A DNA stretch of 64,000 nt from a virus: positions 1 through 64,000 of the IMG/VR virus record IMGVR_UViG_3300039451_000027; one strand, 5' to 3'. The notes below the pieces were generated by a model. That model did no database searches and was not told the origin of the DNA. It saw nothing but the letters and a program-made list of their open reading frames with translations. Made by a program: the position numbers and the translations under genes. Shown piece by piece: positions 7,217 through 63,689 of this stretch. How positions within the stretch are numbered: the stretch's first letter is position 1; the number at the start of each line of letters is the position of its first letter.

Positions 7217-7225
7217 TTGGACCTC

Positions 7226-7554: not shown

Positions 7555-7860
7555 TTACTTTCCCACCTGGTACCACGCGTTGCACGTGTAGACCTCGCTC
7601 ATCCACTTGGCGATCGCGGCTATCTTGCCCCAGAACTCGAGGTCCTCCGTCCGGGATGCGTGCAGGTATTTGTCGATTGCGTAATCGAACGAGTGACCCA
7701 TCGCGAGGTCCCAACCGATGATGTCGTACCAGCTCATGTACCAGTGCGTGGGATGGCACTCCACCCCGAAGTGGACGCAGATGTCCATGTCGACCTGGGC
7801 GAGCTTGATCGGCCCGAGCTCGGGTCGGTCCCGATACGAGAGTTGAAAGCAGTTCGGCAT
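7555..7860 (-). CDS. hypothetical protein (101 aa, Trp/His-rich)
   Basis: Track ORF; AGGAGG SD. Confidence 0.65.
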   Translation of the reverse strand: MPNCFQLSYRDRPELGPIKLAQVDMDICVHFGVECHPTHWYMSWYDIIGWDLAMGHSFDYAIDKYLHASRTEDLEFWGKIAAIAKWMSEVYTCNAWYQVGK

Positions 7861-8089
7861 ATTATCCTCCTATTGAGAAGAGTACGGCGCCCGCGTTCGG
7901 TCCCCAGCAAAACGCATTGGGGACCTCTCGTGAGGGCTCCCGACCGAGTCAGGTAGATTTGAGAAGCCTGGAGTCGTCGCACGGCACTAGCCGATCAAAG
8001 CCTGTCCGTCACGCTGACTTCTCGCGGCTCCCTTGATCTGCTCGGTACGGCTCTCACGTTCCCGGTGGTCGGCCCACCGGGAGGCCGGG

Positions 8090-8296
8090 CTACTTGATCG
8101 ACGCGAGCTTGCCGTCGACCATCTTTCCCCTCGCGTACCACGCGTGCGGCTCGGGCGACCAGGGACCCTCGAGCGTGACGGTCCCGTTCTCGGGCGGGGG
8201 ACCGCCGAGGCCGGGCTCGAAGACCTCCACCGCCTCGCCCTTGGCCAGCGCCTCCTTCAGCGCCTTTTTCGTTCGAAAGTTCGGACGTACGTACAT
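8090..8296 (-). CDS. hypothetical protein (68 aa)
   Basis: Track ORF; AGGAGG SD. Confidence 0.6.
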   Translation of the reverse strand: MYVRPNFRTKKALKEALAKGEAVEVFEPGLGGPPPENGTVTLEGPWSPEPHAWYARGKMVDGKLASIK

Positions 8297-8530
8297 TGGA
8301 CACCTCCTGGGTTAGAATAGTACGGCTTCCCCAATCCGGATTGGAGAGGCATTGCGACGGGTCCGGGCAGCCGCCCTCCGCTGGAAGGTGGGTGCTTGCG
8401 GAATCTTGAGTTGGTGTCGACTTGGTGCACTGATGTGACTCGGGACGGAGGGCGGCCGTCCGGACCCGCCTAGTGAAGAGTACGGCGCTCGCGGATGCCC
8501 TCTGGACAGATCGGGCGATCTTGTGTCAGA

Positions 8531-9607
8531 TTACGACTTGGGCATTGACTTCAGGTGCTCCTCGAACTTCTCCGGGGAGTCGTCGAGGAGGCTCTTGCAG
8601 AAGGGCCGCAGGGACTCGGGGATCGAGTCCCAGTTGCGCGACAGGACCTCCAGCACCTTGCCGATGCGGAAGAGCCGATCGTCCTCCTCCAGGAGTCCCC
8701 GGAGGAACTCCTCGCCCTCGCCGGCCGCGTAGCGGAGCACGTTCGAGATGCCTTTGCACTTGAACGCGTCCGCCCTCGTCGAGAGCTCCTTCGGCGTCGG
8801 CCGCTTCTTGTCGACCTTGTCGGCAGTTCCGGCGTCCTCCGCCTTAAACTGGTCAATCAGCTTGTTGAACTCCTTCCCCCCGGTCTCGGGATTCCATCCT
8901 CCGTTCTCCGGCTTCCGGTCGCTCGTCCGAGCTGCGCTCAGCTGCTTGATCCGCTCGCGGGTCACCTTCATGGTGACCGACTCGCCCTCCTCCAGGAGGC
9001 CGTCGGCGGCCTTGTGGGTCAGCACGAACTGATCCCACACGTACCCGCCCATTGTCGCAACGGCGAGGATTCCGTTCCCCACCGTCCCGTGAAACCACGT
9101 CTTCAGCTTCGCCTCCCGCGCCTTTGGCTCGGTTGGCAGCTCGCGGAGCTTGTTGGTGTTCCCGGTGAAGGACGCCAGCGAGTAGTACATCCTCGTGATG
9201 ATGTCTGATTCCGACTGGCCCTCCAGGAAGGCTCGTCGGACGGCCAAGACGATCTCCGTCTTGCACAGTTCCTTCTGGCTACCCTGGTCGTTGATGATCG
9301 ACAGCCGCTCGGCCGGAGTCAGTTCGCTGTAGACGATGAACTCCACCTTGTCCAGCTTCTCCTTCAGCTCTGCCGTGAGGGTGGGGTCCTTGTACAGGAG
9401 CTGACCCGCCCGCGTCCTGCGGTTGCCGGACAGGACGACCCACTCGTCGCCCTGTCGCTCGATGATGATGGGGGTGTGAATCCCACCACCCTGCCGGATC
9501 TGCTCGACCATCGACGGGAGGTCGTAGTTGTTGCGAAGTCTGACGTTGACGTCATCCTTCGACACGACGCTCATGATCGACATCGGTTTGCGTACCATCT
9601 TGCTCAT
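8531..9607 (-). CDS. ParB/Srx N-terminal-domain protein (ParB-like, 358 aa)
   Basis: ..HTPIIIERQGDEWVVLSGNRRTRAG.. ParB-box signature; long helical C-terminal part; GGGGAG SD. Confidence 0.8.
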   Translation of the reverse strand: MSKMVRKPMSIMSVVSKDDVNVRLRNNYDLPSMVEQIRQGGGIHTPIIIERQGDEWVVLSGNRRTRAGQLLYKDPTLTAELKEKLDKVEFIVYSELTPAERLSIINDQGSQKELCKTEIVLAVRRAFLEGQSESDIITRMYYSLASFTGNTNKLRELPTEPKAREAKLKTWFHGTVGNGILAVATMGGYVWDQFVLTHKAADGLLEEGESVTMKVTRERIKQLSAARTSDRKPENGGWNPETGGKEFNKLIDQFKAEDAGTADKVDKKRPTPKELSTRADAFKCKGISNVLRYAAGEGEEFLRGLLEEDDRLFRIGKVLEVLSRNWDSIPESLRPFCKSLLDDSPEKFEEHLKSMPKS

Positions 9608-9658
9608 GATGCTCCCCTTTCTGGCTCCGGTGAGCGGGCATCCACCCTCCGGGACTCG

Positions 9659-9874
9659 TTAGACGTATGTTGTGCTGCTCGTTCCGCGCGGCCCATGCCG
9701 CACGACAATGTATCGCTGTCCCTTGACCCGCGCCGCGTTCATGGCGGCCTCCGCTTGCTTGTATGAGCCGACGAACTTTTGGACCGACCCGTCGTCCGGG
9801 TTGATTAGCTTGATCATCCAGAGGCCCCTCCTGATTGCCTCCAGAGTATCTGGCGTATGTTGCTCTTTTGCCAT
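9659..9874 (-). CDS. hypothetical protein (71 aa)
   Basis: Internal ATG of track ORF 9659..10021, preceded by GGAGGG. The upstream part of the track ORF is repeat sequence read as protein. Confidence 0.55.
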   Translation of the reverse strand: MAKEQHTPDTLEAIRRGLWMIKLINPDDGSVQKFVGSYKQAEAAMNAARVKGQRYIVVRHGPRGTSSTTYV

Positions 9875-10060
9875 AGTGCCCTCCACTTCCGTCTGGGAGG
9901 GCGGGTGCCCGCTCACCGGAAGCCACGTTGGTTGTGCGATCGGTGATCGCGCTTCCCAGAGGGCATCCGTGAGAGCCGTACTCTTCATCTGGTGCGTCTG
10001 TCGCGCCGACTGGGCGGACACTCACCCTCCGGCGATATCAGAGTTTTGGAAGATTAGTCT

Positions 10061-10195
10061 TCACATTCGGTGAATTTGGATGATTTGGATACCCGACTTG
10101 CGGCTCGCGATCTTGCGAGCCGCGTCCCATTGCGAAGCACCGTTGACAGTGCAGTGGTACTTGCACCCAGACAGGATGTAGGTCACCTCGTACAT
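10061..10195 (-). CDS. possible small protein (44 aa)
   Basis: Not in track. GGAGG 5 nt upstream of the ATG. MYEVTYILSGCKYHCTVNGASQWDAARKIASRKSGIQIIQIHRM. Its 5' leader is homologous to that of 9659..9874. Confidence 0.4.
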   Translation of the reverse strand: MYEVTYILSGCKYHCTVNGASQWDAARKIASRKSGIQIIQIHRM

Positions 10196-10281
10196 AACTG
10201 CCTCCATTTCCTCGCTGGGAGGGCGGGTGTCCGCCCAGTCTGGCGCTTTGCGACTTTCTGCTAGGCTCCGATCGCTCGCGT

Positions 10282-10396
10282 GATTGGCCGATCAATTTCG
10301 GCTCGTTGTTGGGTATTGCGATCGCTCACCCGATCGACTTCCGCGCTCTTGGATTGCCGATTTTTCGGCTCGGTGGTATTGCGGTCGTTCGATCGG
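10282..10396. repeat. two imperfect ~50-bp direct repeats
   Basis: 10282-10336 and 10352-10396 share GATTG(G)CCGAT..TTTCGGCTCG..GGTATTGCGRTCG..CGATCG. Confidence 0.6.
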
Positions 10397-11039
10397 CATA
10401 CTCGCCGATCCGCACCAGACCCGACGGCTCGGCAGCGCAAATTGATCCGGGGTCAACGCTCGTGCGGGATGCCGGAAAGTCTAAGCGCCTAATCCTCCGA
10501 TCGATCCCCATCGTGGAGGTTGCCTTTGCCGTCGGTAGTCCCGCGGCGCGATCCCGGTATTTCAGCCGGTGATGCTTGACCATCGTGCGGCTCGGAGGAG
10601 CCGCCTAGCTGCGCTGACGCCTAGAGTGTGCGCCAGCTACACCCGATTGGGTAATCGGGGCGCCAAGGTCATCCGCTGTCTGAGGACTGATCCATTTGTT
10701 TCTATCGGATCGCTTGCGCGTCGATACGGCAGACGGATTTATCTGCCTCACCTATATAGGCAGACTGATCGCGGAAAAGTTAAGCGGAAAATTTCGCTGT
10801 TCGACTGTTCAGCATCACTGCTGTACTGCCGTACATCTCTCCGCCAAACCCTCCCGGACAGTTTGCCCGAAGGTGCATCAGATGCGAGTTGCATCTGACG
10901 CTAATACAGGCACGGTTACTGCGAAAAAGTTAAGGGTATTTTTATTTTTCTCTGGACATTTTCGACTTAACTTTTTACAAAGACTGTACCGATACGTTAT
11001 CGGGACGCAAACGGGTATCGCCCAAAGGGAGCTAAAACG

Positions 11040-11831
11040 ATGAAGACTGCATTCGACAGCAAGTACGCCACGAACTACGCTAGGAAGGCACTGCGACACT
11101 CGCGCGGCATTCGCTGCGATCAGACCGCCCACGACATCGCGCAGGAAGCCGCGCTAATCTGGTGGAGTAGCGACAGGACACTCACTACGCTACAGTCTGT
11201 CCGCAAGGCGTGGCGCAAGTGGCGCCACGACAACAGGGAGGCAGACGTTGGTTCGCCTACTCGCGCCAAGAATCCTCTCACCAGATACGCGCATAGGTGC
11301 CATGGCGCACACTCCATCGCGCAGGTATCGTGCATCCGAGAAGTGAGGGAGCGCGTGAACGACCTGATTCGTGACGGGATGGACGCGAGCCTGAAGACGA
11401 TCATCCGGTACTACGCCAGTGGTGCCAGTGGCGCAGACTGCGCGGCCGCGCTAGGAGTGAGCGCGGCGAGAGTGTCGCAATTAACCGCCAAACTGAGAGA
11501 TAGGCTCCCGCTGTCAGCGCTGCGCGAGCGCGAGCGCGGGGAGGCGCTGCCTCCCGTCCGTCCAGCCGCGCCGACTGTCACGCGAGCGCCGGACACCCAT
11601 AGGCCAGCGCTGGCGTACTCTCCTGAGATGGTCGACGTTTACCCCGTCTCTGATGAAGAGTGCGCTAGGCGCGAAGTAGCGTCAGCGCTGCGCGTCGATA
11701 CTCGCATTACCGTACTCGCGTCGGCTAGTGGAATCTTTCCCCCCGCGCCCGATGTCCTGGCTCGTATCTGGCGCGGCATGGCGCAGCGCCGCGCGGCCGG
11801 ATGGATACTCACTGCCGGAGAGGGTATCTAA
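11040..11831 (+). CDS. sigma-70-family (ECF-like) sigma factor with Ala/Pro-rich C-terminal extension
   Basis: Region-2-like HDIAQEAALIWW and region-4.2-like HTH ADCAAALGVSAARVSQLTAKLRDRL; AAGGGAG SD. Confidence 0.6.
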   Translation: MKTAFDSKYATNYARKALRHSRGIRCDQTAHDIAQEAALIWWSSDRTLTTLQSVRKAWRKWRHDNREADVGSPTRAKNPLTRYAHRCHGAHSIAQVSCIREVRERVNDLIRDGMDASLKTIIRYYASGASGADCAAALGVSAARVSQLTAKLRDRLPLSALRERERGEALPPVRPAAPTVTRAPDTHRPALAYSPEMVDVYPVSDEECARREVASALRVDTRITVLASASGIFPPAPDVLARIWRGMAQRRAAGWILTAGEGI

Positions 11832-26434: not shown

Positions 26435-27001
26435 ATGCTAGGACAAGCTCTCCCCGGCAGTGACGGCAATTGGTTCAGCATGGTGATCGGGGCCATTGTG
26501 ACGATGGTCCTCGGCTACCTGAACTGGAAGCAGAGGCGGCAGGACGCGATCATAAATCAGAATCAGAAGGACCTCAACTACCACATGGAAGAGATCAGGA
26601 GCCTCAGGAAGTCGGAGGAGAACTGCAGGGTAGAGCTTGCCGCAATCAAGGCGAAGCAGGACCGTGACGGGAGCGTGGTGGCCTCTGGCTTCGTGATGGC
26701 GAATCACGCGGGTATCATAATGGACGCCGATCCGAACGTCTGCACACTCGTGGGATGGAAGAGGCGGGAGCTCATCGGCCAGCCCATCCACATGCTGATA
26801 CCGGGCGACTTGCGGGAGCAGCACGAGGAGAAGTTCAGGGAGGCAGTTGCGAGCCCCTATGAAGTTCGGAGGTATTTGATAGATGCTCATATCCTCCGTC
26901 GCGACGGTGAACTCGTCGCTGTACACATTGGTCTGGTGGGGTGGGGTCAGAATTCAGAGACCACCTTCTTGGCGATTATTAGGCCGAGGGTAAAATTGTG
27001 A
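26435..27001 (+). CDS. membrane-anchored PAS-domain protein (188 aa)
   Basis: GAGAGGAGG SD; TM helix WFSMVIGAIVTMVLGYLNW; coiled coil. PAS-like ..GIIMDADPNVCTLVGWKRRELIGQPIHMLIPGDLREQHEEKF..DGELVAVHIGL... No kinase domain. Confidence 0.65.
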   Translation: MLGQALPGSDGNWFSMVIGAIVTMVLGYLNWKQRRQDAIINQNQKDLNYHMEEIRSLRKSEENCRVELAAIKAKQDRDGSVVASGFVMANHAGIIMDADPNVCTLVGWKRRELIGQPIHMLIPGDLREQHEEKFREAVASPYEVRRYLIDAHILRRDGELVAVHIGLVGWGQNSETTFLAIIRPRVKL

Positions 27002-27363
27002 ACATCTTAATCGTTGATGACGATCCGGTGCTCCAGGAGCTGCTCTGCTCGTTTTTCGCAAGTCGCGGACACTGCGTCCGGCGAGCCTCCAATGGTGTTG
27101 AGGCATTGGCGATGGTGGAGACCGCGCTCAAGTTGGATGTCGTATTGCTTGACGTCCTCATGCCCGGACTGTCGGGAAACCAGTTCATCAAGGCGGTGAG
27201 GGGTGGAGGGGACACCATCCCGATTGTCGTACTCTCGGGTTATAGGAACGAGCTCGAGGCCCACTTGGTCGATCAGGTTGACGCCGTCGTTGACAAGCCT
27301 CCGAGCATGGACAACTTGCTCAAGGTTGTCGAGTCGGCAGTCAGCAGGAGTGCCTCACCTTGA
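26998..27363 (+). CDS. stand-alone response-regulator receiver (CheY-like, 121 aa)
   Basis: GTG overlaps the PAS gene stop. ILIVDDD, VVLLDVLMPGLSG (acceptor Asp), VVLSG, VVDKP (Lys): all canonical REC positions. Confidence 0.85.
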   Translation: MNILIVDDDPVLQELLCSFFASRGHCVRRASNGVEALAMVETALKLDVVLLDVLMPGLSGNQFIKAVRGGGDTIPIVVLSGYRNELEAHLVDQVDAVVDKPPSMDNLLKVVESAVSRSASP

Positions 27364-43000: not shown

Positions 43001-43756
43001 GGCTCGGTCAAGGCGATCGTGGAGAAGGCGATCTACAACTCGGAGGATAACTCGATTGACGTGGAGTGCTGGGTGCCGGTGGTGCTGGGGAGCGAGACCA
43101 TCTACCCGTTCGCGTGGCCGCAGGGAATCAGCGCGCAGCTCCTGTTCCCCGCGATCCTCGACATCAACGGCGGGAATGCCGGTAACCCCATCGGGCAGTA
43201 CGTCCCGACCGGTCAGGCCTTCACGATTGACCAAAACTCCGCCTTATCCGACAACACCGTACAACTGAGGCCGAAGGACTATGGCGACATCAAGCCGTCC
43301 GATTCCGGCGACGCGATTCCACCTGACCCGACGAGCGGGTTCGGGGAGGTCGATTACACGACCGGGCAGTTGCCCGACGCGATCTCGCTACCGGCGGACG
43401 TCCCCCTATCGACGGACCTGCCGACCTACGTGAACTGGGGAGGGAGGCGCGTGCGATCAGACCAGATCCTCCCGAAGACGGTGACCGGCACAACCGTGCT
43501 CTCAACTAGCGCTGATGCCCCCGGCTCGGGAGGGATGCTCGTAACTGTAATTGATCCGATCTTCGATCCGAGCCTCGGTCCTAACGAAGTCTCTCCGATC
43601 TACAATGTGATTCTCATGGACGGTACGCGACGCACTGCTCGGCAAAGGCAGATCAATACCAGGAGCAAGATTCCGAACGGCACTCAGGCTTTGATGATCT
43701 ACGATCAGCACGCTAACGAGTACCAGATTCAAGTTCCTGTTTGGGGGAGTAATTGA
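40097..43756 (+). CDS. large distal-tail/host-specificity protein (J-like, 1219 aa)
   Basis: Largest tail gene after the tape measure. The N-terminus recalls tail-tip hub proteins. Central coiled coil. Confidence 0.7.
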   Translation: MRSLTSAAIAEIAERTGTEPINIIQVSWTDGNTQSYADRSIAGIPGKVISISNLDEVIKLENRGSTASVSVVLDDSDSSIQALLGEFDVHRRPVTIFQYFAGMSLSDAFVLMVGWVSSPIVWNEGERTFSFDVLSKYLSQEVGFTPEQGQLPYVPADLVGKTWPLAFGSVVNVPATKYAETVVGFTGVEFGYPDPTLDLKISILQQRLARYAVTYSYYQTVMQIASQISRAPDLIKEDYINLILEEDELKQQREDYATQLTDLDRNLQQLKELVAEAETAQDQQDVLSTLQAQQGYRQQLVENLLPITQRLTDIAVEKQVLAIEADNREYAYKVIGEVRTKLFALISTYYTAVETLHSMQDALFLQQKLIRGTIDVGNGYLFPQGGTISVIVEGLIFRGTMTGRTFSIASHGARYTDVKLGPRQDSQDSTQLSRPDAFWIADPTINLKGLYLLLGNGYITKVTEQQGTECIIELVERQQPSGKEAGDKPQAPPADSDLNMFTWSQLAGAQEHTDGEREKIIEQAQGKDDQGDQIKEMRKNIQSLIDLLPEASTEADAKDVQDAIFNNMGYFNDVVSNLTLPPDIQAKADEKISQEEFALLLKLQNLKKTELAQAESAVEPILPFLKSKYFVTGLDVQSSGILEASPYVLPSWLSRVSTEQFYHLPATSPLIVRAGTPVTLADNYQNKYIANILPSTLVAVSAFRSIQGFRVLVPVPSSFYQWNGNLALGVVQDGIFYGLHVSQLQLIRPLSELAGEGWEDQPYVTLISSVGPNTADVIQFLLQTYSNVTCDSGSFAAVRGYLANYPSHFVLAKQSEVIQLCEDIAWQARCRIDIKGNVARLTYLPREPAAVATITEDSVLEGSLSVETTETENLVTEFRAKYTPDLAYPDRVYTVVLRHNFTRYGRIEKDYDFFIYNIESLIQKSATFWMIRLSNTFKRVKFKCPLTMLNVETGDTVLLSFSQAWVASGSVKAIVEKAIYNSEDNSIDVECWVPVVLGSETIYPFAWPQGISAQLLFPAILDINGGNAGNPIGQYVPTGQAFTIDQNSALSDNTVQLRPKDYGDIKPSDSGDAIPPDPTSGFGEVDYTTGQLPDAISLPADVPLSTDLPTYVNWGGRRVRSDQILPKTVTGTTVLSTSADAPGSGGMLVTVIDPIFDPSLGPNEVSPIYNVILMDGTRRTARQRQINTRSKIPNGTQALMIYDQHANEYQIQVPVWGSN

Positions 43757-45522
43757 TGAAGAGTAATGATCAGCTCGGTCTCGATGTGATTTATACGAGA
43801 TCCCTCGTGCAGAAAGTTCCGTTGACTGAGGATGTCATCAACAATCTTGATGAGACTGGTATCAAGGCTCCAAACATCTGGGTGTTCTGGGCGGACGGCG
43901 GATTGACCCTCCCTGATTTTGACAAAGTCTACTCGCAGCTCTACAACGATACGGACACCGACAGTTTCCCCCAGACGCCGTCTCCCGATATTTATTTCAG
44001 TGTTACTGAGCTATTGGGATCTGCTCAGTATGTGTCTAAGACTTGGCCTGATGGTCAAAATGTTTTGAATTGCGAGTACGGGAATACAAAGTTCAAGCAG
44101 TCACAGCCACTTTCAGCCAGTGTCCCAGATTGGCGACAGCAGCTCCCCGGACCCAAGAAGTATGGTCAATCGGGGACCGTCCTCCAATTGCCAAAAACAG
44201 TGAGGATCATCTGCGTCGATTTAGCAACCACTAATACGGAGTGCGCAGCGGGGACTCGCCAGTATTGGACCTATTACTACTTGGCTCCTGGGCAATCGCT
44301 GTATGACGCGAGCGGAAATATCATCGCCACCGCACCGACACTTGGACCGCCTCCGTACTCAGCGGGTGAAGTTATCCCATCTGGCATTTACGTATCCGTC
44401 GAATTGCCCATAAGTGGGGGCGCGTCGATCTCCGTATTTTACGTCAATATGCGAGAATCCAGTGGCGGTCACTTTTTAACAATTGAGACGACAATTTTGA
44501 CTTTCGAGTACAATTTGGGAGATCCTAGTCTAGGGTTATCCCCGCACAGTCATCCAGGTCCAACTCTCACTTTTCCAGTCGGCATTTTTGACAACAGTGT
44601 GGTCACGACTTTTCCGTCGCGGCAAACGTATGAGAACCATATCAAGAGGCACATCTCTTTTGATTATAGGTATCTCGTTTTGGCAAATGAGCTACAGGAA
44701 GAATTCCACGATCTCAATATACAATTTGTGTGCTTGACCCCCGACGGCATTGTAAAGTATATATATTATCCCTACCTCTCGAGCTTGAACACATTAAGCA
44801 GTTTTTACGGTTCACAAATCAAACAGTCGCGACCGCAATTTATCAATGATCCAAGGTATTGGAATTTTGGTCCCTCTGCTACACTGGGTCAGTACGCGTC
44901 ATTTTCTGCAACGGCCCCCGGTATTGCTGGACACTTTTTGAAGGCTCTGATGCCAGTGACAATTCCCGCGCAATATCACGATCCGCAGTATGGCGACCGG
45001 CGGCAAATTCAGGGCGTCCTTAATGGCGACGTTTTGAATTTGGTGTTCGTGAGACAAAGTGTGGCCGATTTGAGCTATACTCTTCCAGATAGTGGTATCG
45101 TTCCCAATACTGGTACTAGCCTCGGATTTAATATGTATCTGCCATACTGGGAACTCTACACAAAGAGTGGAACTACCTATAATTTGCAAGCCAGTTTGTC
45201 GGAGACCGTGTTCATGCAATCCGGAATGCGAATTTGGGATATTGAGGCAGCTCAAGTCAAGATTGCAACTGCTGGAATTACTTGCCAAACGGTGTTTTTT
45301 ACAGATCTGTCAATTGTTGATCAAGTAACTAATGGCCCAGTTCAAGATCCAGCTATCCCGCCTGTGAATACCCCCATAGGTTCTGTTACCGCACAAAAGT
45401 TAAGGCAGTGCGTTGAACAGACCGACCCAGAATTACGCTGGAATTACGGTGGCGAGGTCGATTCAGAGACTTTTAATATCGCGGATCTTGCGAGCACCAT
45501 AAGGAAGCACTTTCCACCATGA
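43753..45522 (+). CDS. putative receptor-binding/tail fibre protein (589 aa), low-GC
   Basis: Terminal position in the tail module. Two sampled 60-nt lines are 37-38% GC, versus clearly >60% in flanking genes. Confidence 0.65.
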   Translation: MMKSNDQLGLDVIYTRSLVQKVPLTEDVINNLDETGIKAPNIWVFWADGGLTLPDFDKVYSQLYNDTDTDSFPQTPSPDIYFSVTELLGSAQYVSKTWPDGQNVLNCEYGNTKFKQSQPLSASVPDWRQQLPGPKKYGQSGTVLQLPKTVRIICVDLATTNTECAAGTRQYWTYYYLAPGQSLYDASGNIIATAPTLGPPPYSAGEVIPSGIYVSVELPISGGASISVFYVNMRESSGGHFLTIETTILTFEYNLGDPSLGLSPHSHPGPTLTFPVGIFDNSVVTTFPSRQTYENHIKRHISFDYRYLVLANELQEEFHDLNIQFVCLTPDGIVKYIYYPYLSSLNTLSSFYGSQIKQSRPQFINDPRYWNFGPSATLGQYASFSATAPGIAGHFLKALMPVTIPAQYHDPQYGDRRQIQGVLNGDVLNLVFVRQSVADLSYTLPDSGIVPNTGTSLGFNMYLPYWELYTKSGTTYNLQASLSETVFMQSGMRIWDIEAAQVKIATAGITCQTVFFTDLSIVDQVTNGPVQDPAIPPVNTPIGSVTAQKLRQCVEQTDPELRWNYGGEVDSETFNIADLASTIRKHFPP

Positions 45523-45770: not shown

Positions 45771-46108
45771 TTACGTATGCAGCGTCTGTGGACACGTTCC
45801 ACGCTCGCCTGAGCAAATTGGGGTTTGACCCCATCAGCATCCTCACGATCATTCAAGCGGTCATTCAGACCCTGATGGGCGTGCTGCCAAACGTCTGCCC
45901 AAAGCCGCCCACGCCATCGAGCCTGAAGTCGATGGCGGGTGGTGGAGAGGGGTACATCCTACTTCGACTCTCACTGCGTAGTCACCTGATCAGCCAGGGC
46001 TACGCTCGCCAGCATGTGATGAGTGCTGTTGACGGTGTGATTGCTACGATCAACGAATCGTCCGAGGAAGAGATCGGCGCGTTCATCGCTCCGCATCTTG
46101 CAGGGTGA
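45767..46108 (+). CDS. hypothetical protein (113 aa)
   Basis: GTG 45767 after GGAGGA, overlapping the upstream stop. Track ORF 45701..46108, same frame. Confidence 0.5.
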   Translation: MITYAASVDTFHARLSKLGFDPISILTIIQAVIQTLMGVLPNVCPKPPTPSSLKSMAGGGEGYILLRLSLRSHLISQGYARQHVMSAVDGVIATINESSEEEIGAFIAPHLAG

Positions 46109-46119
46109 AAGGAACTGTG

Positions 46120-46545
46120 ATGAAGATTCTGCTCTCGATTCTGCTCCTGCTCGTCACCGCCCTTCCGTCATTTGCCCAGTGCGCCTGCGCTGCAGTCCAG
46201 GGCGCCTGCACCTGCCAGAACTGTCAGTGCGGACAGCAAGCTCAGTCAACGCCTTCGGCGCGGATCTTGAGCTACTCGGTCCCGACGATCAGCTACTCTG
46301 TCCCGGTGGTTAGCTACTACCAGGCTCCAACGGTCAGCTACTACCAGGCTCCGACGATCAGCTACTCTGTCCCGGTGGTCAGCTACTACCAGGCTCCGAC
46401 GGTCAGCTACTACCAGGCTCCGAGAATCATCCCCTCGGTGAATTACTCGATCGGCAACTACACTTACCAACCGGCCGTCTTGCCGAGGAACCGGGGGTAC
46501 GTGCCCACTAACGTCGTCGCACCAGCCGCAGCTTGCGGAAGCTGA
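46120..46545 (+). CDS. secreted Cys-rich protein with SY-rich octapeptide repeats
   Basis: Signal peptide MKILLSILLLLVTALPSFA; QCACAAVQGACTCQNCQC; seven SYSVP(T/V)(I/V) / SYYQAPT(V/I) units (DNA 46270-46425). Confidence 0.6.
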   Translation: MKILLSILLLLVTALPSFAQCACAAVQGACTCQNCQCGQQAQSTPSARILSYSVPTISYSVPVVSYYQAPTVSYYQAPTISYSVPVVSYYQAPTVSYYQAPRIIPSVNYSIGNYTYQPAVLPRNRGYVPTNVVAPAAACGS

Positions 46546-46581: not shown

Positions 46582-46782
46582 ATGATCGACTGGAACCGAC
46601 TGATGGTCCTCGCGGGGGCCATCTTCCTAACCCTCAATGCGAAGTACCAGTGGTTCGCGCCGACCCAGGCAAGCGAGCTCGCAAGGAACGCGATCGAGTT
46701 TGCGCAGCTCGCGGTCGGTGCGTACCTCTTCTTCGCCGTCAAGCCGCCGCCAAAGATTGAGATCGGCGACGGCAAAGATTAA
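46582..46782 (+). CDS. holin-like two-TM protein (66 aa)
   Basis: GAGGAG SD; TM1 LMVLAGAIFLTLNA, TM2 FAQLAVGAYLFFAV; charged C-terminus. Confidence 0.45.
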   Translation: MIDWNRLMVLAGAIFLTLNAKYQWFAPTQASELARNAIEFAQLAVGAYLFFAVKPPPKIEIGDGKD

Positions 46783-46792
46783 GGAGACAACC

Positions 46793-48796
46793 GTGATTCG
46801 TAAATTTCTGTCCGTCCTGACGATAGTGGCCATCGCCTCCAGCTTCGTCCTCGCCGATCCAGCGAGCCCGACCAAGCGAGGAAAGGGCTACAAGCAGCCG
46901 TCCGCCGAGGTCCGGGCCAAGCTGCACGCTGAGGCGTTCAAGCGGCACGGCTTCAGGATGCACTACTTCGTCAAGAATGCGACGCCGCCAGCGAAATTCG
47001 ACTGTCGCGACATGGGCTGGGTGCCGCCAGTCGACGACCAGGGGCAGTGCGGCGACTGCTTCGGCGTCTCGACCTCCGACCTGTGCACGATGGCGTTCAT
47101 CAAGGCTGGCTACCAGAAGGCCGACGGGAGCTTCCACATATCCACGCAGTACGGCCTCGACTGCGGGGCTTACGATGGCGGGTGCAACGGCGGAAACGGC
47201 GAGCAGGTCGCAGACTGGATGAAGAAGACCGGCTTTCCTGCGGACAGGTACGTGGACGACAGCGGAAAGTCCGCGAGCGACTACCCGGCCTACACCGCGA
47301 GCGCCGGTCAGTGCCGCCTCCCCTCCGGGGCCAAGATGTGGAAGATCGCGGACTGGGGCTATGCTACCAGCGACCAAAGCGACCGCGCAGCGACCCCGGC
47401 CGAGATCAAGGCCGCCATGATGCAATACGGACCGCTGAGCATCGCGCTCGACGCGAGCGACGGATGCTTCGATGGTTCTGGCGACGTCTGCGAGGACATC
47501 GGCACCAACGTCGACCACGAGATTACGATGGTCGCCTGGGACGACAGCAAGGGCAAAGCTGGGGCCTTCTTAGTGCGCAATCAATGGAGCAAGGACTGGG
47601 GCGACCAGGGCTACAGGTGGATTGGCTACGGGACCTTCAAGAACGTGGTGAGCGTCTTCTGGATGACCGTTACTCCACAGCCCGCGCCCCCGCCTCCTCC
47701 TGGACCTACTCCAGGGACCGCGACCCTCACGAGCGTGACCGCGACATTCAGTGACGGCTCGACGCAGACGCTCGGAGGCACTGGACTGACCGCGGACCAG
47801 CTCAAGGCAATGACGATTCCGCAGCTGATGGACTTCATCAACGCCGGAAAGTCGAAGCCGCCGTGCCCCAAGCCGATGCCACCAGCTGAAGGTGGCATGT
47901 CCTACCTTGACCGAAAGATCGCGGAAGCCTACGCAGCGGAAACTGCGGAGGGCAAGGCTGAGAAGGCGATGGCAATCTCTCGGCAGTGCTGGGGGGCGGC
48001 CGCGAGGATCCTCCAGGACGATTGGACGAAGTCAATCGGCGAGTTCAGGAAGTTGGTCGACGGCTACTACGATCCTCTCCCCAAGCTGAAGGTCGCGATC
48101 GTATCCTACCTCGATGCCCTGATCGAGTCGGACCGCGAGTGGACCTCTGCCAGGCGATCCCTGGCGAGCACGGCGATGCAGTCGGTAGCTTCCGGAATCG
48201 ACAAGGCGGTAAAAGCGCCAGCCGTCGGAGAGCGAAAGAGTTGGAGTCAATTGATGCTTCCCAAAGGCGCCGAGAAGTACCAGTCCGCAGAGTTCACTCA
48301 GGCGGTCTCCCACGACCGGTCCAACGCCCCCGCGATTCGGAGGGTCCCGATCAAGGAGGTCGACAGAAAGTGGCAACAGTCCGGGGGCATGGACGGGGTC
48401 GCCGGCGTGACGAGCGATAAGTACAGGTCGCTCCCGCGAGCTCCCGAGGAGTTCGTGGGCAAGGTCGCGGTCACCTTCAAGCACGAGGGGAGGGAATACG
48501 AGCAGGAGGAGCTCGCGCTAAGGAGGCGATACGCCGACGGCAGCAGGTTCGACGACGTTCTCTCGTACAACGGCGTGGTCTTCGAGCACAGGAAGCGAGA
48601 GAAGGTGGGCGGGAAGTGGACCTCCGGAATAGTGTACTCAGACGCCGGAGCGAGGCCACCTGGCTACGAAGGGTTGACGACAACCTGCGCCGAGTGCCAC
48701 GAGAAGGCGGGTACCGGAATTTACGCAATGGGGCTCGCGCCGGGCGGCGATGGGGTCCTTAGCGATCCTCTTCCCTGGCGACTCTGGAAGAAGTGA
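46793..48796 (+). CDS. secreted papain-family (C1) cysteine peptidase fused to ~330-aa C-terminal region ending in CxxCH
   Basis: GTG after AAGGAG; signal peptide. DDQGQCGDCFG (Gln/Cys), VDHEITMVAWD (His), VRNQWSKDWGDQGY (Asn/Trp). Pro-rich linker; ..TTCAECHEKAG.. near the end. Confidence 0.8.
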   Translation: MIRKFLSVLTIVAIASSFVLADPASPTKRGKGYKQPSAEVRAKLHAEAFKRHGFRMHYFVKNATPPAKFDCRDMGWVPPVDDQGQCGDCFGVSTSDLCTMAFIKAGYQKADGSFHISTQYGLDCGAYDGGCNGGNGEQVADWMKKTGFPADRYVDDSGKSASDYPAYTASAGQCRLPSGAKMWKIADWGYATSDQSDRAATPAEIKAAMMQYGPLSIALDASDGCFDGSGDVCEDIGTNVDHEITMVAWDDSKGKAGAFLVRNQWSKDWGDQGYRWIGYGTFKNVVSVFWMTVTPQPAPPPPPGPTPGTATLTSVTATFSDGSTQTLGGTGLTADQLKAMTIPQLMDFINAGKSKPPCPKPMPPAEGGMSYLDRKIAEAYAAETAEGKAEKAMAISRQCWGAAARILQDDWTKSIGEFRKLVDGYYDPLPKLKVAIVSYLDALIESDREWTSARRSLASTAMQSVASGIDKAVKAPAVGERKSWSQLMLPKGAEKYQSAEFTQAVSHDRSNAPAIRRVPIKEVDRKWQQSGGMDGVAGVTSDKYRSLPRAPEEFVGKVAVTFKHEGREYEQEELALRRRYADGSRFDDVLSYNGVVFEHRKREKVGGKWTSGIVYSDAGARPPGYEGLTTTCAECHEKAGTGIYAMGLAPGGDGVLSDPLPWRLWKK

Positions 48797-49356
48797 TGGA
48801 AGTCAAATGCTTCATGATTGAGCCGATGGCGACCGGACCGCAGTGGCTCCGCCGATACGCGAGCGGTGACTGCGGAGGTCGCCGATACCACAACGCGATG
48901 ATCCGCATCGGGGATTGCAAAATCCTTACTGGCGCCGACGGCTGCATTTCCCCCGAACGTCCCGAGTACCCGAGGGACGACCCGAGGTGGCCCAGGAGTT
49001 GCGAGGCTTGCGGTCGGCCGTTCGAGGACCGGGACGAGTGGCAGCTGTTCTACGAGCAGTGGTACAGGATGCCGGATGGCTCGTCCGTTTGCATCAGGTG
49101 GGACTTGCCAGGCGTCCCGCACGCGCCTCCCGGAGCGATGTGGTACAGCGACTGGTACTGGAGGAAGGGTCCCGACGGTCGGTGCCTGAGCGTTATCTTA
49201 CCGGACGGTGTGACGTGGATGATAGACGGACCAAGCAACAGCGGAGGCGACGGATGGACCAGGGAGGGCGCGCCGCCCCTCGTTACCGCAAATCCCTCGA
49301 TTTTGACCGCCGGCTATCACGGCTGGCTGAGGAGCGGCGTCTTGATAGAATGCTGA
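48793..49356 (+). CDS. hypothetical protein, DUF6527-like C-terminus (from memory)
   Basis: Track ORF; ..ANPSILTAGYHGWLRSGVLIEC. Confidence 0.55.
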   Translation: MMEVKCFMIEPMATGPQWLRRYASGDCGGRRYHNAMIRIGDCKILTGADGCISPERPEYPRDDPRWPRSCEACGRPFEDRDEWQLFYEQWYRMPDGSSVCIRWDLPGVPHAPPGAMWYSDWYWRKGPDGRCLSVILPDGVTWMIDGPSNSGGDGWTREGAPPLVTANPSILTAGYHGWLRSGVLIEC

Positions 49357-49370
49357 GGAGGTCTCGGATA

Positions 49371-49484
49371 ATGGCGGACCTCCTCGCCATCCCGATCGTC
49401 ATCCTGTGCGCCTTCCTCAATCCGTGGTCCTTTGCCGTATTCCTAATCGCGATGCTCGCCTCAATCAAGTTCAGGTGGAGGTGA
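49371..49484 (+). CDS. possible single-pass membrane peptide (37 aa)
   Basis: GAGGAGG 9 nt upstream; MADLLAIPIVILCAFLNPWSFAVFLIAMLASIKFRWR. Confidence 0.4.
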   Translation: MADLLAIPIVILCAFLNPWSFAVFLIAMLASIKFRWR

Positions 49485-49487
49485 TCG

Positions 49488-50174
49488 ATGTTCGATGTGA
49501 GTATCGCCGAGAGGATGGCGAGGGCCTGTGATCTTGCCTACTGGGCGGATTCTGAGAAGGTGGTCAAGGACCTCAGCGTCGAGCAAGCTCGCGTAATCAG
49601 CATGGCTGGCCACGGCGCGCTGGTCGCCGAGTCAGAGGCTGAGACGATCGTGGCCTTTCGGGGGAGCGCCTCGATCCGGGACTGGATCGACGACGGCCAG
49701 TTCTACCTGGCGTCTATTCCGCCCTACTTCGGCAGGGTCCACGTGGGCTTCTCCCGAGTCCTGATCAGCCTGTATGCCGAGCTCTCGCCGTACCTCCAGC
49801 GGGGCAACGTCGCGATCACTGGACACAGCCTCGGCGCGGCGGTAGCCGTGCTCGCCTCCTGCTCCGTCCCGGTGCTGTCGAAGCCGCTCTACCTGTTCGG
49901 GTGCCCGAAGGTCGGGGATCGGCAGTTCGCGGACTCGTACCAGCACAGGGTATACCGCGTCATCAACGACCTCGACCCGGTGTGCCACGCCCCGTTCGAC
50001 TGGCTCTATCGGCACGTGGGCGAGGAGGTGTGGTTGCCGGAGCTCGGTCCGCGGAGCCTGTGGGGCAGGCTCAAGCGAGTGTGCTCCCAACTGCTGCGCG
50101 GACTGCCGAGGACGGTGATGACGGCGGTCGAGCACCACCTCATATCCAAGTACGTCGATGCCCTGTCAAGTTGA
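49488..50174 (+). CDS. class-3 lipase / alpha-beta hydrolase
   Basis: VAFRGSASIRDWIDD, VHVGF, ITGHSLGAAVA (nucleophile elbow), NDLDPVCHAP. Confidence 0.75.
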   Translation: MFDVSIAERMARACDLAYWADSEKVVKDLSVEQARVISMAGHGALVAESEAETIVAFRGSASIRDWIDDGQFYLASIPPYFGRVHVGFSRVLISLYAELSPYLQRGNVAITGHSLGAAVAVLASCSVPVLSKPLYLFGCPKVGDRQFADSYQHRVYRVINDLDPVCHAPFDWLYRHVGEEVWLPELGPRSLWGRLKRVCSQLLRGLPRTVMTAVEHHLISKYVDALSS

Positions 50175-50599: not shown

Positions 50600-51274
50600 T
50601 CAATGATGCCCTCGGGGCGGTGGTGGCTCGCCGTTGATCGCGTTGACGACATTCACCTCCACCCCATCGTATCTCGGGCGATTGCTGAATGCGACCTGAT
50701 TGCTCGAGCCGCTCCCGACTCCGAGGTTCACGACCTCGTCGTCTCGGAAACTGCTAAATGCCGGTGTGGATCGCGTAAAGGTCGTCCGTCCACCATCACC
50801 GGAGCGCTGCACGTCGACCACAGCATCGCCGATCGAGGTCTGGTAGAAGGCGCCCATGAAGGCGCAGTCGTCGATTGAGACGTGGGTTCCGGAACCAGGC
50901 CTCCTGAAACCGAGGTCCGTGAGGTCGCAGTACTTCGAGATCGCGACGTCCCTGAGCGTCACCCGATCGTATCCTTGCCCGGTGAGGACAGAGAGGTACT
51001 TGAGGTTGACGTCGTGGATGTAGATGGAGTTGTCGCCGTCAGCCGTCTCCACGGTCACGCTGTCGATTCCGACGAAGGCGTGGTCCCCGCGATCGTCGGT
51101 GACGACCACCTCGCCGGCGTGCGAGCCTCCGCGGATTTCTACGTCGATTGAGATGATGCCTGCCCGCTTGAAGCACTGTACGTCCAGGTGCCCTCGACCC
51201 TCGTCGGTGATCGTGACGAGCGGAATTGCAGACGGGCAGTCTCGCCTCTCGAGCTCTTCTACTTGTAGAATCAT
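50600..51274 (-). CDS. hypothetical beta-rich protein with N-terminal LE-x-R-x-x-PS motif
   Basis: Track ORF; MILQVEELERRDCPSAIP..; Asp/Gly/Val-rich. Confidence 0.6.
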   Translation of the reverse strand: MILQVEELERRDCPSAIPLVTITDEGRGHLDVQCFKRAGIISIDVEIRGGSHAGEVVVTDDRGDHAFVGIDSVTVETADGDNSIYIHDVNLKYLSVLTGQGYDRVTLRDVAISKYCDLTDLGFRRPGSGTHVSIDDCAFMGAFYQTSIGDAVVDVQRSGDGGRTTFTRSTPAFSSFRDDEVVNLGVGSGSSNQVAFSNRPRYDGVEVNVVNAINGEPPPPRGHH

Positions 51275-58261: not shown

Positions 58262-59227
58262 ATGTCGCAGACGGTGTTGGCAAGTATTCCGCTATCGTCG
58301 ATCCGGGAGAATCCGGTCGCGCTGCGGAACGTCAATCGAATGAGCCCCACCTATAAGGAGCTCGTGGACAGCGTGAAGCGGTCGGGCATCCTCAACGCGA
58401 TCCTCGTCCGCGAGATCGTGGACCCCCGAACGAAGGTCGTGGTCTACGGTCTGATCGACGGACTGCACCGCTTCAGTGCCGCTCAGGACGCTGGGCTCAC
58501 GGAGATTCCGGCGCAGGTCCGCAGCATGGAGGATGCGGCGGTGCTGGAGGCGCAAGTCATCGCAAACGTCCAGAAGGTGGAGACTCGCCCGGTCGAGTAC
58601 TCGAAGCAACTCGTGAGAATCTTAGCCCAGAATCCTCTGCTGACCCTCGACGAGCTGTCGTCGCGGTTGGCAAAGTCTCCGACGTGGTTGAACGAGCGAC
58701 TCGGCCTCGTGAAGCTCGACGAGGCGATCGGCAAGCTAGTGGACGAGGGGCGGATCTGCCTGAGCAATGGCTACGCCATTGCGAAGCTCAGTGCAATCGC
58801 TCCTGAGGAGGTGTCGAACTACGTCGATCGAGCGATGGTGATGAGCCCCAACGAATTCGTCCCGACCATCACCTCGCGCGTCAAGGAGCTGAAGGAGCTG
58901 CGTCGCCAGGGACGCGACGCGACGCCAGCGACCTTCCAGCCCGTCGCCCACATCCGCAAGCTTGGCGAGCTCAAGGAGGAGATGGAGAATCCGAAGGTCG
59001 GTCCGGTCCTCATCAAGGAGCTGAACGTCAAGACGCCGAAGGAAGCCTTCGAGTTGGGCGTCAAGTGGGCGCTGCATATGGACCCGGCGAGCATCGAGCT
59101 TCAGAAGCAGAAGGACGCCGAGCGCAAGGCGAAGCTCGAGGCCGAGAAGCTGAAGCGGAAAGAGGAGAGGGAGAAGAAGTCCGAGGAGGAGGCGCGGAAG
59201 GCCGCTGCCGACGTGACGAAACTCTGA
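58262..59227 (+). CDS. ParB/Srx N-terminal-domain protein (ParB-like, 321 aa)
   Basis: ..ILVREIVD..VVYGLIDGLHRFSAAQDAGLTEIPAQV..; Lys/Glu-rich C-terminal tail. Confidence 0.75.
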   Translation: MSQTVLASIPLSSIRENPVALRNVNRMSPTYKELVDSVKRSGILNAILVREIVDPRTKVVVYGLIDGLHRFSAAQDAGLTEIPAQVRSMEDAAVLEAQVIANVQKVETRPVEYSKQLVRILAQNPLLTLDELSSRLAKSPTWLNERLGLVKLDEAIGKLVDEGRICLSNGYAIAKLSAIAPEEVSNYVDRAMVMSPNEFVPTITSRVKELKELRRQGRDATPATFQPVAHIRKLGELKEEMENPKVGPVLIKELNVKTPKEAFELGVKWALHMDPASIELQKQKDAERKAKLEAEKLKRKEEREKKSEEEARKAAADVTKL

Positions 59228-62849: not shown

Positions 62850-63689
62850 ATGCCGCTTGCTGAATCAGAACTGAAGCCCTTCGAAGTCCCGATGAGCGAA
62901 ATTTTCAGCGACGAGGAATTCAACTGCCGGGGCAAAATTGCGCCTTACGACGTCATAGACCTCGTTCGCTCCATTGACCAGAACGGCTTGCAGCAGCCGA
63001 TCATCGTCCAACCGTTCGACAAGCACCCGCCGCACAAGTACCGGATCGTGAGCGGTCACCGAAGGCACGCGGCCTTCCGGGTTCTCGAGAGGCCGACCAT
63101 TCCGGCGATCATAAAGGACGGGCTCTCCGATCTCGACGCGAGGAAGTGGAACCTGGAGGAGAACCTCAAGCGTCAGAACCTCAACGTCCTCCAGGAGGCG
63201 AGGGCCATTGCACACTTCAAGAATGCTGGCTACACGCAGGAGGACCTGGCCAGGGAGCTCGGGGTGAGCCGTGGTTGGGCGCAGGTGAGGTTCATGACTC
63301 TCGAACTGCCCCCGGAGATTCAGGAGGAGGTGGCAGCCGGCTTCCTCACGCAGCAGCAGATCAAGGACATCTCCCACATGCCCCGGGAGGATCAGTTCGT
63401 CGCGGTCAAGAGGATCAAGCTCGCGCGGGAGAAGGGCGAGGCGCCCGTCAAGATCAGGAAGAAGAACAGGAATCCCCTCATCAAGAAGGTGAGGCTCAGG
63501 GATGAAATATTCGAGATGCAAGAGATGATTCAGTCGGTCATCGGAAATAACTTCGGCACGAGGATGCTCGCCTGGGCGGCCGGAGAGATATCTGATCTAG
63601 ACGCATTGCGAGACCTCCGGGAGCTCGCGAAGGAGAAGGGTGTACCGTATGAAATTCCTGCAGATATCCTGCAAGCAGCCAAATTGTAA
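62850..63689 (+). CDS. ParB-family protein (N-domain + HTH, 279 aa)
   Basis: ..YRIVSGHRRHAAFRVL.. (GxRR box), then the HTH GYTQEDLARELGVSRGWAQVRF. Confidence 0.85.
   Translation: MPLAESELKPFEVPMSEIFSDEEFNCRGKIAPYDVIDLVRSIDQNGLQQPIIVQPFDKHPPHKYRIVSGHRRHAAFRVLERPTIPAIIKDGLSDLDARKWNLEENLKRQNLNVLQEARAIAHFKNAGYTQEDLARELGVSRGWAQVRFMTLELPPEIQEEVAAGFLTQQQIKDISHMPREDQFVAVKRIKLAREKGEAPVKIRKKNRNPLIKKVRLRDEIFEMQEMIQSVIGNNFGTRMLAWAAGEISDLDALRDLRELAKEKGVPYEIPADILQAAKL

Follow-up and report, generated by a model that had tools for sequence, protein, structure and literature searches.

The stretch of viral DNA analyzed here, positions 1 to 64,000 of IMG/VR record IMGVR_UViG_3300039451_000027 (the window, 64,000 nucleotides (nt) in length), carries a cassette of five tightly spaced plus-strand genes at 46582-50174, one of which encodes an exported C1 (papain-family) cysteine peptidase fused to a beta domain with a CxxCH motif. 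We tentatively favor, at somewhat below even chances, the reading that the cassette is a late-expressed lysis module in which the Sec-exported C1 peptidase takes the place of the endolysin. What leads us to this reading is the position of the cassette, last in a plus-strand block that runs from terminase to tail genes and is followed by convergent genes; the membership of the peptidase in a phage-specific clade with an endolysin-like build, in which an export signal and a catalytic domain are followed by a linker and then a C-terminal module that varies; the small membrane-protein neighbors and the proximity to terminase genes; the dedicated C1 inhibitor of one relative; the pairing, in a second clade, of a signal-less C1-like peptidase with an exported CxxCH protein; and the fact that neither a muralytic family nor a known muralytic fold was detected.

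The peptidase assignment is secure. The match to PF00112 has an E value of 1.9e-27 (97.2 bits against a cut-off of 20.7) and spans profile positions 2-205 of 220, and the protein has 175 relatives in the PDB at E<=1, the best of which, at E values as low as 2e-17, are cathepsin L/K, cruzain and plant enzymes of the papain type. When the protein is aligned to 7avm and cruzain, residues Q83, C89, H242, N263 and W265 fall on the catalytic positions, and each is invariant or at least 90% conserved in 31 homologues. An intact C1 peptidase with a signal peptide and the Gln/Cys/His/Asn-Trp set, as originally predicted, is therefore borne out by the family match, the structural alignment and the conservation. 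Two further cysteines, C86 and C131, are invariant across the alignment of the 31 clade members, and they may occupy the positions of the Cys22-Cys63 disulfide pair of papain. No I29-type propeptide is matched; the peptidase has an extension of ~44 residues with a clade-specific GRGY...HAxAFxRHG motif. Translation starts at a GTG codon 5 nt after the sequence AAGGAGA, and a 719-amino acid (aa) open reading frame (ORF) that begins at 46637 was rejected as an over-extension of the gene. Beyond the Pro-rich linker, a small module common to the homologues is followed by two long helices, placed at query positions 2-25 and 30-70 in AlphaFold model m6c0b6bee3129, and then by a beta domain of ~180 aa. 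The original prediction had described this whole region as one domain of ~330 aa ending in CAECH; the CAECH end is correct, whereas the single domain gives way to this composite.

The peptidase represents a clade rather than an isolated capture. The same protein is found, as P0001, on a contig of 97.5 kb, and 30 homologues are 34-58% identical to it in the catalytic part. Each of the 31 clade members carries at its N-terminus a hydrophobic export signal or anchor and also contains the Pro-rich linker, whereas their C-terminal modules vary, comprising He_PIG and PKD immunoglobulin (Ig)-like domains, short helical tails and, in P0024, a PASTA domain that is the sole hint from sequence that the clade may work near peptidoglycan. 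The contigs on which these proteins occur are phage-like, with portal, terminase, primase and tail genes, and the clade is found only on phage-like and metagenome contigs. IMG/VR adds eleven loci (L074-L084; L numbers denote fetched loci) at 34-49% identity to the peptidase, most other viral matches being giant-virus cathepsins. Among 185,579 species genomes, one per species, nothing is more than 31% identical and no close prophage copy was found, and 50,697 GenBank phage records yield one weak C1 match. The expectation that C1 peptidases are very unusual in phages thus holds for sequenced phages, although metagenomic phage contigs harbor a dedicated clade.

One relative of the peptidase is accompanied by an inhibitor. 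In L078 (IMGVR_UViG_3300050821_002513), a chagasin-family protein of 104 aa (Inhibitor_I42, E=6.9e-16, 58.8 bits, with NPTTG, GGGG and RPW motifs) is encoded at L078:2979-3293, directly upstream of the exported C1 peptidase at 3410-4630. Chagasins are specific inhibitors of C1 peptidases, and the presence of one beside the peptidase argues for a potent, dangerous protease activity that the phage must control. The arrangement resembles the chagasin/ICP (MEROPS I42) and C1 pairs in that a full-length I42 inhibitor lies directly upstream of a phage peptidase, but differs in that the L078 inhibitor is without a signal peptide while its peptidase is exported. Across ten related loci, with 130 ORFs lying no more than 5 kb from the peptidase, such an inhibitor occurs in this one relative; it is not present in the window, and a full-text search for 'chagasin' with 'bacteriophage' returned no paper describing a phage-encoded one.

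The C-terminal beta domain of the window peptidase belongs to a separate and widespread family. Its CAECH motif occupies residues 632-636 (nt 48686-48700), with FEHR at 48581-48592, and peptidase residues ~487-660 match a stand-alone ORF in two relatives, one of 334 aa directly upstream of the peptidase in L081 and one of 416 aa directly downstream of it in L001. A search with this tail only returned 75 proteins (E 3e-59 to 4e-16), most of them ~200 aa long and many on large phage-like contigs, and 74 of the 75 have no Pfam domain on record. The family alignment has as its invariant features the CxxCH (75/75), the FEHR motif, a Trp and a PGGD motif; in every member the CxxCH sits ~40 residues short of the C-terminus, and a nine-strand beta domain precedes it. 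At least 62 of the 75 have a clear N-terminal hydrophobic signal, the window copy being exported via the signal of the fused peptidase, and in 45 members the two motif cysteines are the only ones. An invariant CxxCH, an export signal and no other cysteines fit covalent c-type heme attachment, which we regard as plausible and as the most economical reading of the domain. A profile search of the PDB with the family gives weak matches, all to c-type cytochromes at the motif (best SoxD, E=0.007, over ~40 residues). The likeness to c-type cytochromes thus consists of an exported protein with an invariant CxxCH and these weak profile matches to SoxD and other cytochromes c; the difference is that the domain is without the rest of the cytochrome c fold and matches no PDB or BFVD structure. 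A cryptic muralytic or cytochrome fold was sought by Foldseek with a model of the peptidase C-terminal part (predicted local distance difference test (pLDDT) 87 overall and >94 in the beta domain) and gave no match, the best E values being 0.15 (PDB) and 0.026 (BFVD); judged from this model, the CxxCH domain lies outside any described family or fold. One family member, P0085, has thioredoxin-like domains, which by sequence keep a thiol-redox role open.

A gene for a CxxCH protein lies beside a C1 or C1-like peptidase gene in L081, L001, L085, L154/L155 (which count as one phage), L156, L158 and L161. Since the family is encoded separately beside peptidases in these other phages, the window carries a gene fusion. 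In L154/L155, L156, L158 and L161 the partner is a C1-like peptidase of ~265-281 aa with Gln/Cys/His/Asn-Trp present and no signal peptide, and a third conserved gene 5' of it encodes an exported Pro-rich protein with a C-terminal domain of ~100 aa; the three-gene module (Pro-rich, C1-like, CxxCH) spans 5393-7744 in L154, 5529-7627 in L156, 4082-6789 in L158 and 105-2312 in L161. The ORF at L154 5393-6136 was considered as a second C1-like gene and rejected, as its hidden Markov model (HMM) match is caused by the Pro-rich linker and it belongs to a different small family. A signal-less C1-like peptidase and an exported CxxCH partner would meet only after a membrane breach, as at lysis. By sequence comparison the conserved core is the peptidase and the CxxCH protein, not a protease and a lipase.

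This pairing also invites another explanation, that the peptidase and CxxCH domain form a redox or processing device not aimed at the envelope, for example one that matures or destroys a periplasmic host protein of the respiratory or cytochrome machinery to redirect host physiology. It would account for c-type cytochromes being the sole weak sequence similarities of the CxxCH family, for the thioredoxin-like domains fused in P0085, and for the conservation of the peptidase and CxxCH pairing where holin-like genes are not conserved. We consider it very unlikely, however, since such a device is without precedent, the domain has nothing else of the cytochrome c fold and resembles no known structure, a broad-specificity papain-type enzyme with a dedicated inhibitor better suits a destructive role, and most loci place the genes in a late or structural context.

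We then consider whether a conventional peptidoglycan hydrolase is present. Pfam searches of 71 window ORFs, the cassette included, gave no lysozyme, amidase, transglycosylase, CHAP, NlpC/P60, M15 or M23 domain, nor any GH25 or SLT domain. For the 54 window ORFs otherwise unassigned, PHROG and Pfam together gave no muralytic family, and none of the 21 PHROG matches among them is annotated as endolysin, holin or spanin. The prediction that the window holds no recognizable peptidoglycan hydrolase is upheld by these searches. The precomputed Pfam annotation of 20 kb of flanking sequence likewise contains no muralytic family, nor does that of loci L001-L003, L154-L157 and L162. Among the 130 ORFs near the peptidase in the ten related loci, Pfam found no muralytic family and PHROG no endolysin among the best 25 of 48 families (scores better than about 1e-10). 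A Foldseek check for a cryptic muralytic fold, which had been proposed for the whole region, covered two parts, the CxxCH domain and the 186-aa cassette protein described below, and found no known fold in either.

One candidate is orf170, the convergent neighbor, which shares 35 nt with the 3' end of the lipase gene. Its alignment has invariant C10, H107 and D120 and the motifs PxxWxCxPT, IGHDGS, HAxAW and DP, so that a small thiol hydrolase is possible from its sequence. A paralogue, 33% identical, is encoded in the same genome (L004:19443-19898), and the two have three other homologues in 5.8 billion proteins. The possibility that orf170 is a C39-like or papain-like peptidase was rejected, as PDB, Pfam and PHROG gave no match and a comparison of its profile with the C1 profile gave a probability of 1.7%.

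The genomic setting is that of a late gene module. The window is part of an ENA metagenome contig of ~97.5 kb (k141_1948231, 97,525 bp), with window positions 1-11629 corresponding to the end of the contig and 11630-64000 to its start; the two flanking loci give an overlap or offset of 361 bases, which implies a genome of ~97.2 kb that is terminally redundant or closed into a circle. No GenBank phage or plasmid sequence is more than 31% identical to the large terminase, which indicates a phage without cultured relatives. An unbroken block of plus-strand genes extends from the large terminase at 20003 to 50174 and includes genes for the portal, a P22-type coat protein, the tape measure and large tail proteins. 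From 50140 onward the genes run on the minus strand, their products being an exonuclease, a D12 methyltransferase and a primase/helicase-like protein. The strand switch after 50174 means that the cassette closes the block that starts with the terminase, and the ORFs and their ribosome-binding sites agree with the five-gene cassette at the end of a late operon that had been described. Scans for promoters and terminators around the cassette gave no signal above shuffled expectation.

A comparable setting recurs in the relatives. In L081 and L001 the terminase adjoins the peptidase module, and in several further related loci a large terminase is matched by PHROG within 5 kb of the peptidase; in lambdoid genomes, lysis genes are often near the terminase. 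Small transmembrane (TM) ORFs within 1.5 kb of the peptidase number 15 against 8.1 expected (1.85-fold, Poisson P ~0.02, in 9 of 13 loci). In L076, L077 and L079 the peptidase gene is directly adjoined by genes for proteins with two to three TM segments, of which the L077 and L079 proteins are mutually homologous, and proteins with an N-terminal TM segment and a coiled-coil appearance (by eye) recur near the peptidase in related loci only. Small proteins of another shape, having a signal peptide followed by a Cys-rich beginning, are encoded close to the peptidase in L074, L075, L080, L081, L082 and L001 and look similar to the 146-aa protein just upstream of the window cassette. None of the small TM or Cys-rich neighbors in the relatives is homologous to the window's own small genes.

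Within the cassette, the small gene directly upstream of the peptidase encodes a 66-aa protein that had been called holin-like. Its size and two short hydrophobic stretches agree with that description, although only one of the stretches passes a Kyte-Doolittle threshold of 1.7, and it ends in the tail KPPPKIEIGDGKD; a family match is lacking, however, as it has no Pfam, PHROG or NCBIfam match and belongs to no described holin family, and it has no homologue in the related loci. NCBIfam gave nothing meaningful for any cassette protein. No PHROG spanin match was found in the window, and no lipobox protein was seen in the cassette.

The last gene of the cassette encodes a lipase. The Ser, Asp and His of a complete triad are contained in GHSLG (49821-49835), NDLDP (49965-49979) and YRHVG (50007-50021), and GHSLG, NDLD and YRHVG fall on the catalytic triad in an alignment to Rhizomucor miehei lipase 3TGL (also 6QPR); together with the PF01764 match this confirms the proposed class-3 lipase with a GHSLG elbow. 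No relative of the lipase was found in IMG/VR, and GenBank phages gave three weak matches. The lipase, the DUF6527-like ORF and the 66-aa protein are all without counterparts beside the peptidase in any related locus, and the missing lipase counterpart means that the combination of protease and lipase, put forward as an exit strategy in the original prediction, is not a conserved one.

The 186-aa protein encoded between the peptidase and the 37-aa peptide belongs to a very large family, with 1298 representative clusters at E<=1e-3. The protein itself has no match to PF20137 (DUF6527) at E<=0.01; 19 of 53 homologues match that family weakly (best E=8.1e-5), and the label 'DUF6527-like' is acceptable as a statement of distant relationship. 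Its model (pLDDT 96.8) is all-beta. A cryptic muralytic fold was rejected as far as known lysin folds are concerned (best Foldseek E in the PDB 0.29), and a profile search against the PDB gave only noise.

Several points weigh against a lysis module built around the peptidase. The case for it is built from sequence and gene context, and the attempts to identify a host gave no assignment. The holin candidates show no match to a known family and do not recur alongside the peptidase, and the enrichment of small TM ORFs in the relatives is modest and its measure crude. Among the relatives examined, the lipase and the DUF6527-like gene occur in this phage only. The L154 module lies among nucleotide-metabolism genes, not late genes. 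The survey for muralytic families covered ~84 of ~97 kb of the genome, the other 13.8 kb falling outside it, and orf170 with its Cys, His and Asp, as well as the many small ORFs, could hide a new muralytic enzyme. Lastly, accessory (moron) genes, too, are found downstream of the tail fibers, where a late operon ends.

The span outside the survey and the Cys/His/Asp neighbor leave room for an endolysin and open a second way of reading the cassette, in which the protease and lipase are accessory lysis enzymes that strip an extra envelope layer, as LysB does, beside an unrecognized endolysin located in the 13.8 kb or having a new fold, such as that of orf170 or its paralogue. We rate this as unlikely but a substantial alternative. 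The order of Cys, His and Asp in orf170 fits a small thiol hydrolase encoded directly beside the cassette, a lipase that is not conserved with the peptidase is what one would expect of an accessory gene, and those planctomycetes and other diderms that have been studied do contain peptidoglycan (PMC12673574). Set against this, neither Pfam nor PHROG detected a muralytic family in the ~84 kb or in ~20 related loci; endolysins are uncommon among early-type genes such as those that flank the 13.8 kb (for a sigma factor, a methyltransferase and nucleotide metabolism); orf170 is encoded on the other strand, where it closes a block of replication genes, and its paralogue lies by NYN and sigma-factor genes, not late genes; and orf170 is similar to no solved structure or Pfam family.

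The moron-like position raises the further alternative that the cassette is not for lysis, and that the protease, with or without the lipase, remodels the surface of the infected cell, by destroying receptors against superinfection or freeing progeny from debris, or is a moron exoenzyme of a lysogen. The site after the tail-fiber genes is the classical one for morons, Sec export is independent of a holin, the variable Ig-like C-termini (He_PIG, PKD) would suit recognition of surface proteins, at least one related locus has an integrase and this genome has ParB genes, and the surroundings of the L154 module are metabolic. We nevertheless find this quite unlikely, as the peptidase is conserved over many divergent phages and is not sporadic, no close prophage copy exists in the species genomes searched, the signal-less C1-like clade with its exported partner is hard to explain without a membrane breach, and the cassette genes are tightly coupled in a genome with no muralytic family in the surveyed part.

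If the cassette is indeed a lysis module, its genes suggest the following sequence of events. The late operon would be read through the tail genes into the cassette, as its strand, gene spacing and ribosome-binding sites imply. The peptidase precursor would be exported by the signal peptide evident in its sequence and fold outside the cytoplasm, consistent with the two invariant cysteines, and would bring along its own CxxCH beta domain, elsewhere a separate exported partner, perhaps with a c-type heme attached. The enzyme would stay latent until a small membrane protein, for which the 66-aa and/or 37-aa product is a candidate, permeabilizes the inner membrane. Latency could be conferred by the short N-terminal extension, by oxidation of the catalytic thiol or by the partner domain, with a chagasin-type inhibitor as a further option in one relative; thiol-based latency has a precedent in the signal-arrest-release (SAR) lysozyme of P1. 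The protease may then cleave a load-bearing envelope protein or possibly the peptide of peptidoglycan, and, in this phage only, the signal-less lipase freed from the cytoplasm might attack outer-membrane lipid or lipoprotein in a LysB-like manner. No classical peptidoglycan hydrolase would be involved. The gene content is solid, and the comparative data add the fusion, the new domain family and the phage chagasin; it is the lysis mechanism and the lack of an endolysin that we infer. A bolder version, which we judge unlikely as it stands, is that a phage lineage swapped its endolysin for an exported protease gated in the oxidizing periplasm by a CxxCH partner of novel fold, through heme or thiol exchange and sometimes with chagasin as a backup, so that proteolytic lysis would be triggered by the change of redox state or compartment on membrane permeabilization and would suit hosts whose envelope strength is protein-based.

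The proposed module has partial counterparts among known systems. The closest in function are cassettes with exported endolysins, such as the pinholin S21 and SAR endolysin R21 of phage 21 and Lys44 of Oenococcus phage fOg44, which has a cleavable signal peptide. As in these, the cassette is compact and near late or terminase genes, a small two-TM protein is encoded directly upstream of the enzyme, and the enzyme is a Sec-exported modular protein (catalytic domain plus C-terminal module) that would need latency before lysis. Unlike them, the enzyme here is a C1 peptidase and not a glycosidase, amidase or known peptidoglycan peptidase, there is no recognized holin or spanin family, the CxxCH domain is an extra, and the lytic function is putative. 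Mycobacteriophage LysB, which is cutinase-like, releases the mycolate outer layer by lipolysis. The LysA/LysB pair shares with the cassette a serine esterase/lipase in a lysis-type setting that is presumed to act on outer lipid after membrane breach; the lipase here, however, is of the Lipase_3 (fungal-lipase) type and is likened to LysB only by analogy, no LysA-type hydrolase stands alongside it, and it is not conserved in related phages.

Proteases of the same family provide further parallels. The baculovirus cathepsin V-CATH (C1A) acts with the chitinase ChiA, and is likewise a viral papain-family protease, latent late in infection, that joins a second hydrolase in host disintegration and progeny release; it differs in belonging to a eukaryotic virus and acting at the level of host tissue, in having a full I29-type propeptide, and in being without a membrane-protein trigger or CxxCH domain. 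Cwp84 of Clostridioides difficile, a C1A peptidase acting on S-layer protein, is a bacterial-world example with a signal peptide, C-terminal wall-binding modules and an envelope protein as substrate, but it carries CWB2 repeats, serves the cell as a housekeeping enzyme, is not phage-borne and has no lytic role. The CHAP and NlpC/P60 domains of endolysins are also Cys-His thiol hydrolases of the clan CA papain-like fold that cut envelope peptide bonds; they are small, are without the C1 Gln/Asn-Trp architecture or the disulfide-pair cysteines, and are specific for the stem peptides or cross-bridges of peptidoglycan, and none was detected here.

Coordinates of the cassette and its neighbors are collected in Table 1. 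For the 135-aa ORF upstream, the sole homologue in the fetched loci lies at L154 8320-8700, ~600 nt downstream of the CxxCH-protein gene. The gene for the 146-aa protein, which has no family match, contains a 69-nt tandem repeat (2.1 copies, 97% matches, at 46282-46423, or 46270-46423 as more widely delimited) that encodes the YSVPVVSYYQAPTVSYYQAPT repeats.

Table 1 Features of the cassette, its peptidase and the adjoining genes.
Feature	Position	Strand	Evidence or remark
135-aa ORF, one hydrophobic segment	45701..46108	+	Possibly cassette-associated; no Pfam or PHROG match
146-aa exported Cys-rich repeat protein	46105..46545	+	Signal peptide, QCACAAVQGACTCQNCQCG, then YSVP/SYYQAPT repeats
66-aa protein, holin/pinholin candidate	46582..46782	+	GAGGAG ribosome-binding site upstream; two short hydrophobic stretches, charged C-terminus
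667-aa exported C1 (papain-family) cysteine peptidase fused to CxxCH beta domain	46793..48796	+	PF00112
Sec-type signal peptide, residues 1-21 (...SSFVLA/DP)	46793..46855	+	MIRKFLSVLTIVAIASSFVLA read directly from sequence
Catalytic domain, residues 66-283	46988..47641	+	Alignment to 7avm and cruzain; invariant columns
Pro-rich linker, residues 292-310	47666..47722	+	In all clade members
Two long helices, residues ~402-470, joining peptidase part to beta domain	47993..48202	+	AlphaFold model m6c0b6bee3129
CxxCH beta domain, residues ~487-667	48251..48793	+	Homologue search and AlphaFold model
186-aa protein, cytoplasmic, all-beta, Cys-rich	48796..49356	+	ATG overlaps peptidase stop codon
37-aa hydrophobic peptide ending KFRWR	49371..49484	+	Ribosome-binding site GAGGAGG; no family match
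228-aa class-3 lipase/esterase, no signal peptide	49488..50174	+	PF01764 E=2.2e-21; phrog_21992 'esterase/lipase' E=1e-14
orf170, convergent neighbor, 152-170 aa	50140..50652	-	Invariant Cys, His, Asp; not counted with the cassette
224-aa ORF starting MILQVEELERRDCPS	50600..51274	-	Source of an earlier planctomycete hint

Some features of the genome lie outside this argument. A stand-alone CheY-like receiver domain of 121 aa is encoded on the plus strand at 26998-27363, between coat-protein and tail genes, an odd site for a response-regulator module, and Pfam matches to PAS and WD40 beta-propeller domains occur elsewhere among the window ORFs. Right after the gene for a 1219-aa tail protein, a 589-aa ORF (43753-45522, plus strand) has a G+C content of 49% against ~60% for the genome and is without the third-codon-position (GC3) bias of its neighbors; it is probably a recently acquired receptor-binding or tail-fiber module. 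Just beyond the window, a ribonucleotide reductase gene (L004:15837-18959) contains a LAGLIDADG_3 domain, which suggests insertion of an intein or homing endonuclease. The genome encodes at least two proteins with a ParB N-terminal domain, three by PHROG (58262-59227, 62850-63689 and a third ORF), and several sigma-factor genes lie in the flanks of the window.

A planctomycete-like host had been suggested for this phage but could not be demonstrated: besides the absence of a close prophage copy, the phage has no tRNA genes, and the Cys-rich exported proteins, tried as members of the planctomycete wall-protein family YTV, gave no Pfam match even at E<=10. The idea is a hint from sequence, based on the LEELERRDCPS start of the ORF at 50600-51274, the Pro-rich linkers and the Cys-rich exported proteins. 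For that ORF, Pfam, PHROG and NCBIfam gave no match and the fetched loci contain no homologue, and a literature search on the LE-x-R motif gave nothing useful. Planctomycete walls are protein-dominated, with Cys-rich YTV proteins (PMC12673574), and in Planctopirus limnophila the peptidoglycan synthesis genes are dispensable (PMC10632474). If the host is a planctomycete, a proteolytic exit would fit this reported wall biology. Literature searches on C1 peptidases in phage lysis and on endolysins of planctomycete phages gave no relevant paper, and in a 2025 review of planctomycetes the word 'phage' occurs once (PMC12673574).

Irrespective of the question of lysis, three concrete results stand: the exported phage C1 clade, the widespread CxxCH family without Pfam model or known fold that fusion and adjacency link to papain-like peptidases, and the phage chagasin, of which the literature searched holds no description. 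Together they could yield new envelope degraders for bacteria that resist lysozyme-type lysins. To our knowledge, all well-studied lysis systems of tailed phages cut peptidoglycan. A protease-based exit, if true, would be a new solution to a problem common to every tailed phage, and it would point to hosts whose envelope integrity is independent of peptidoglycan, as reported for Planctopirus limnophila (PMC10632474).

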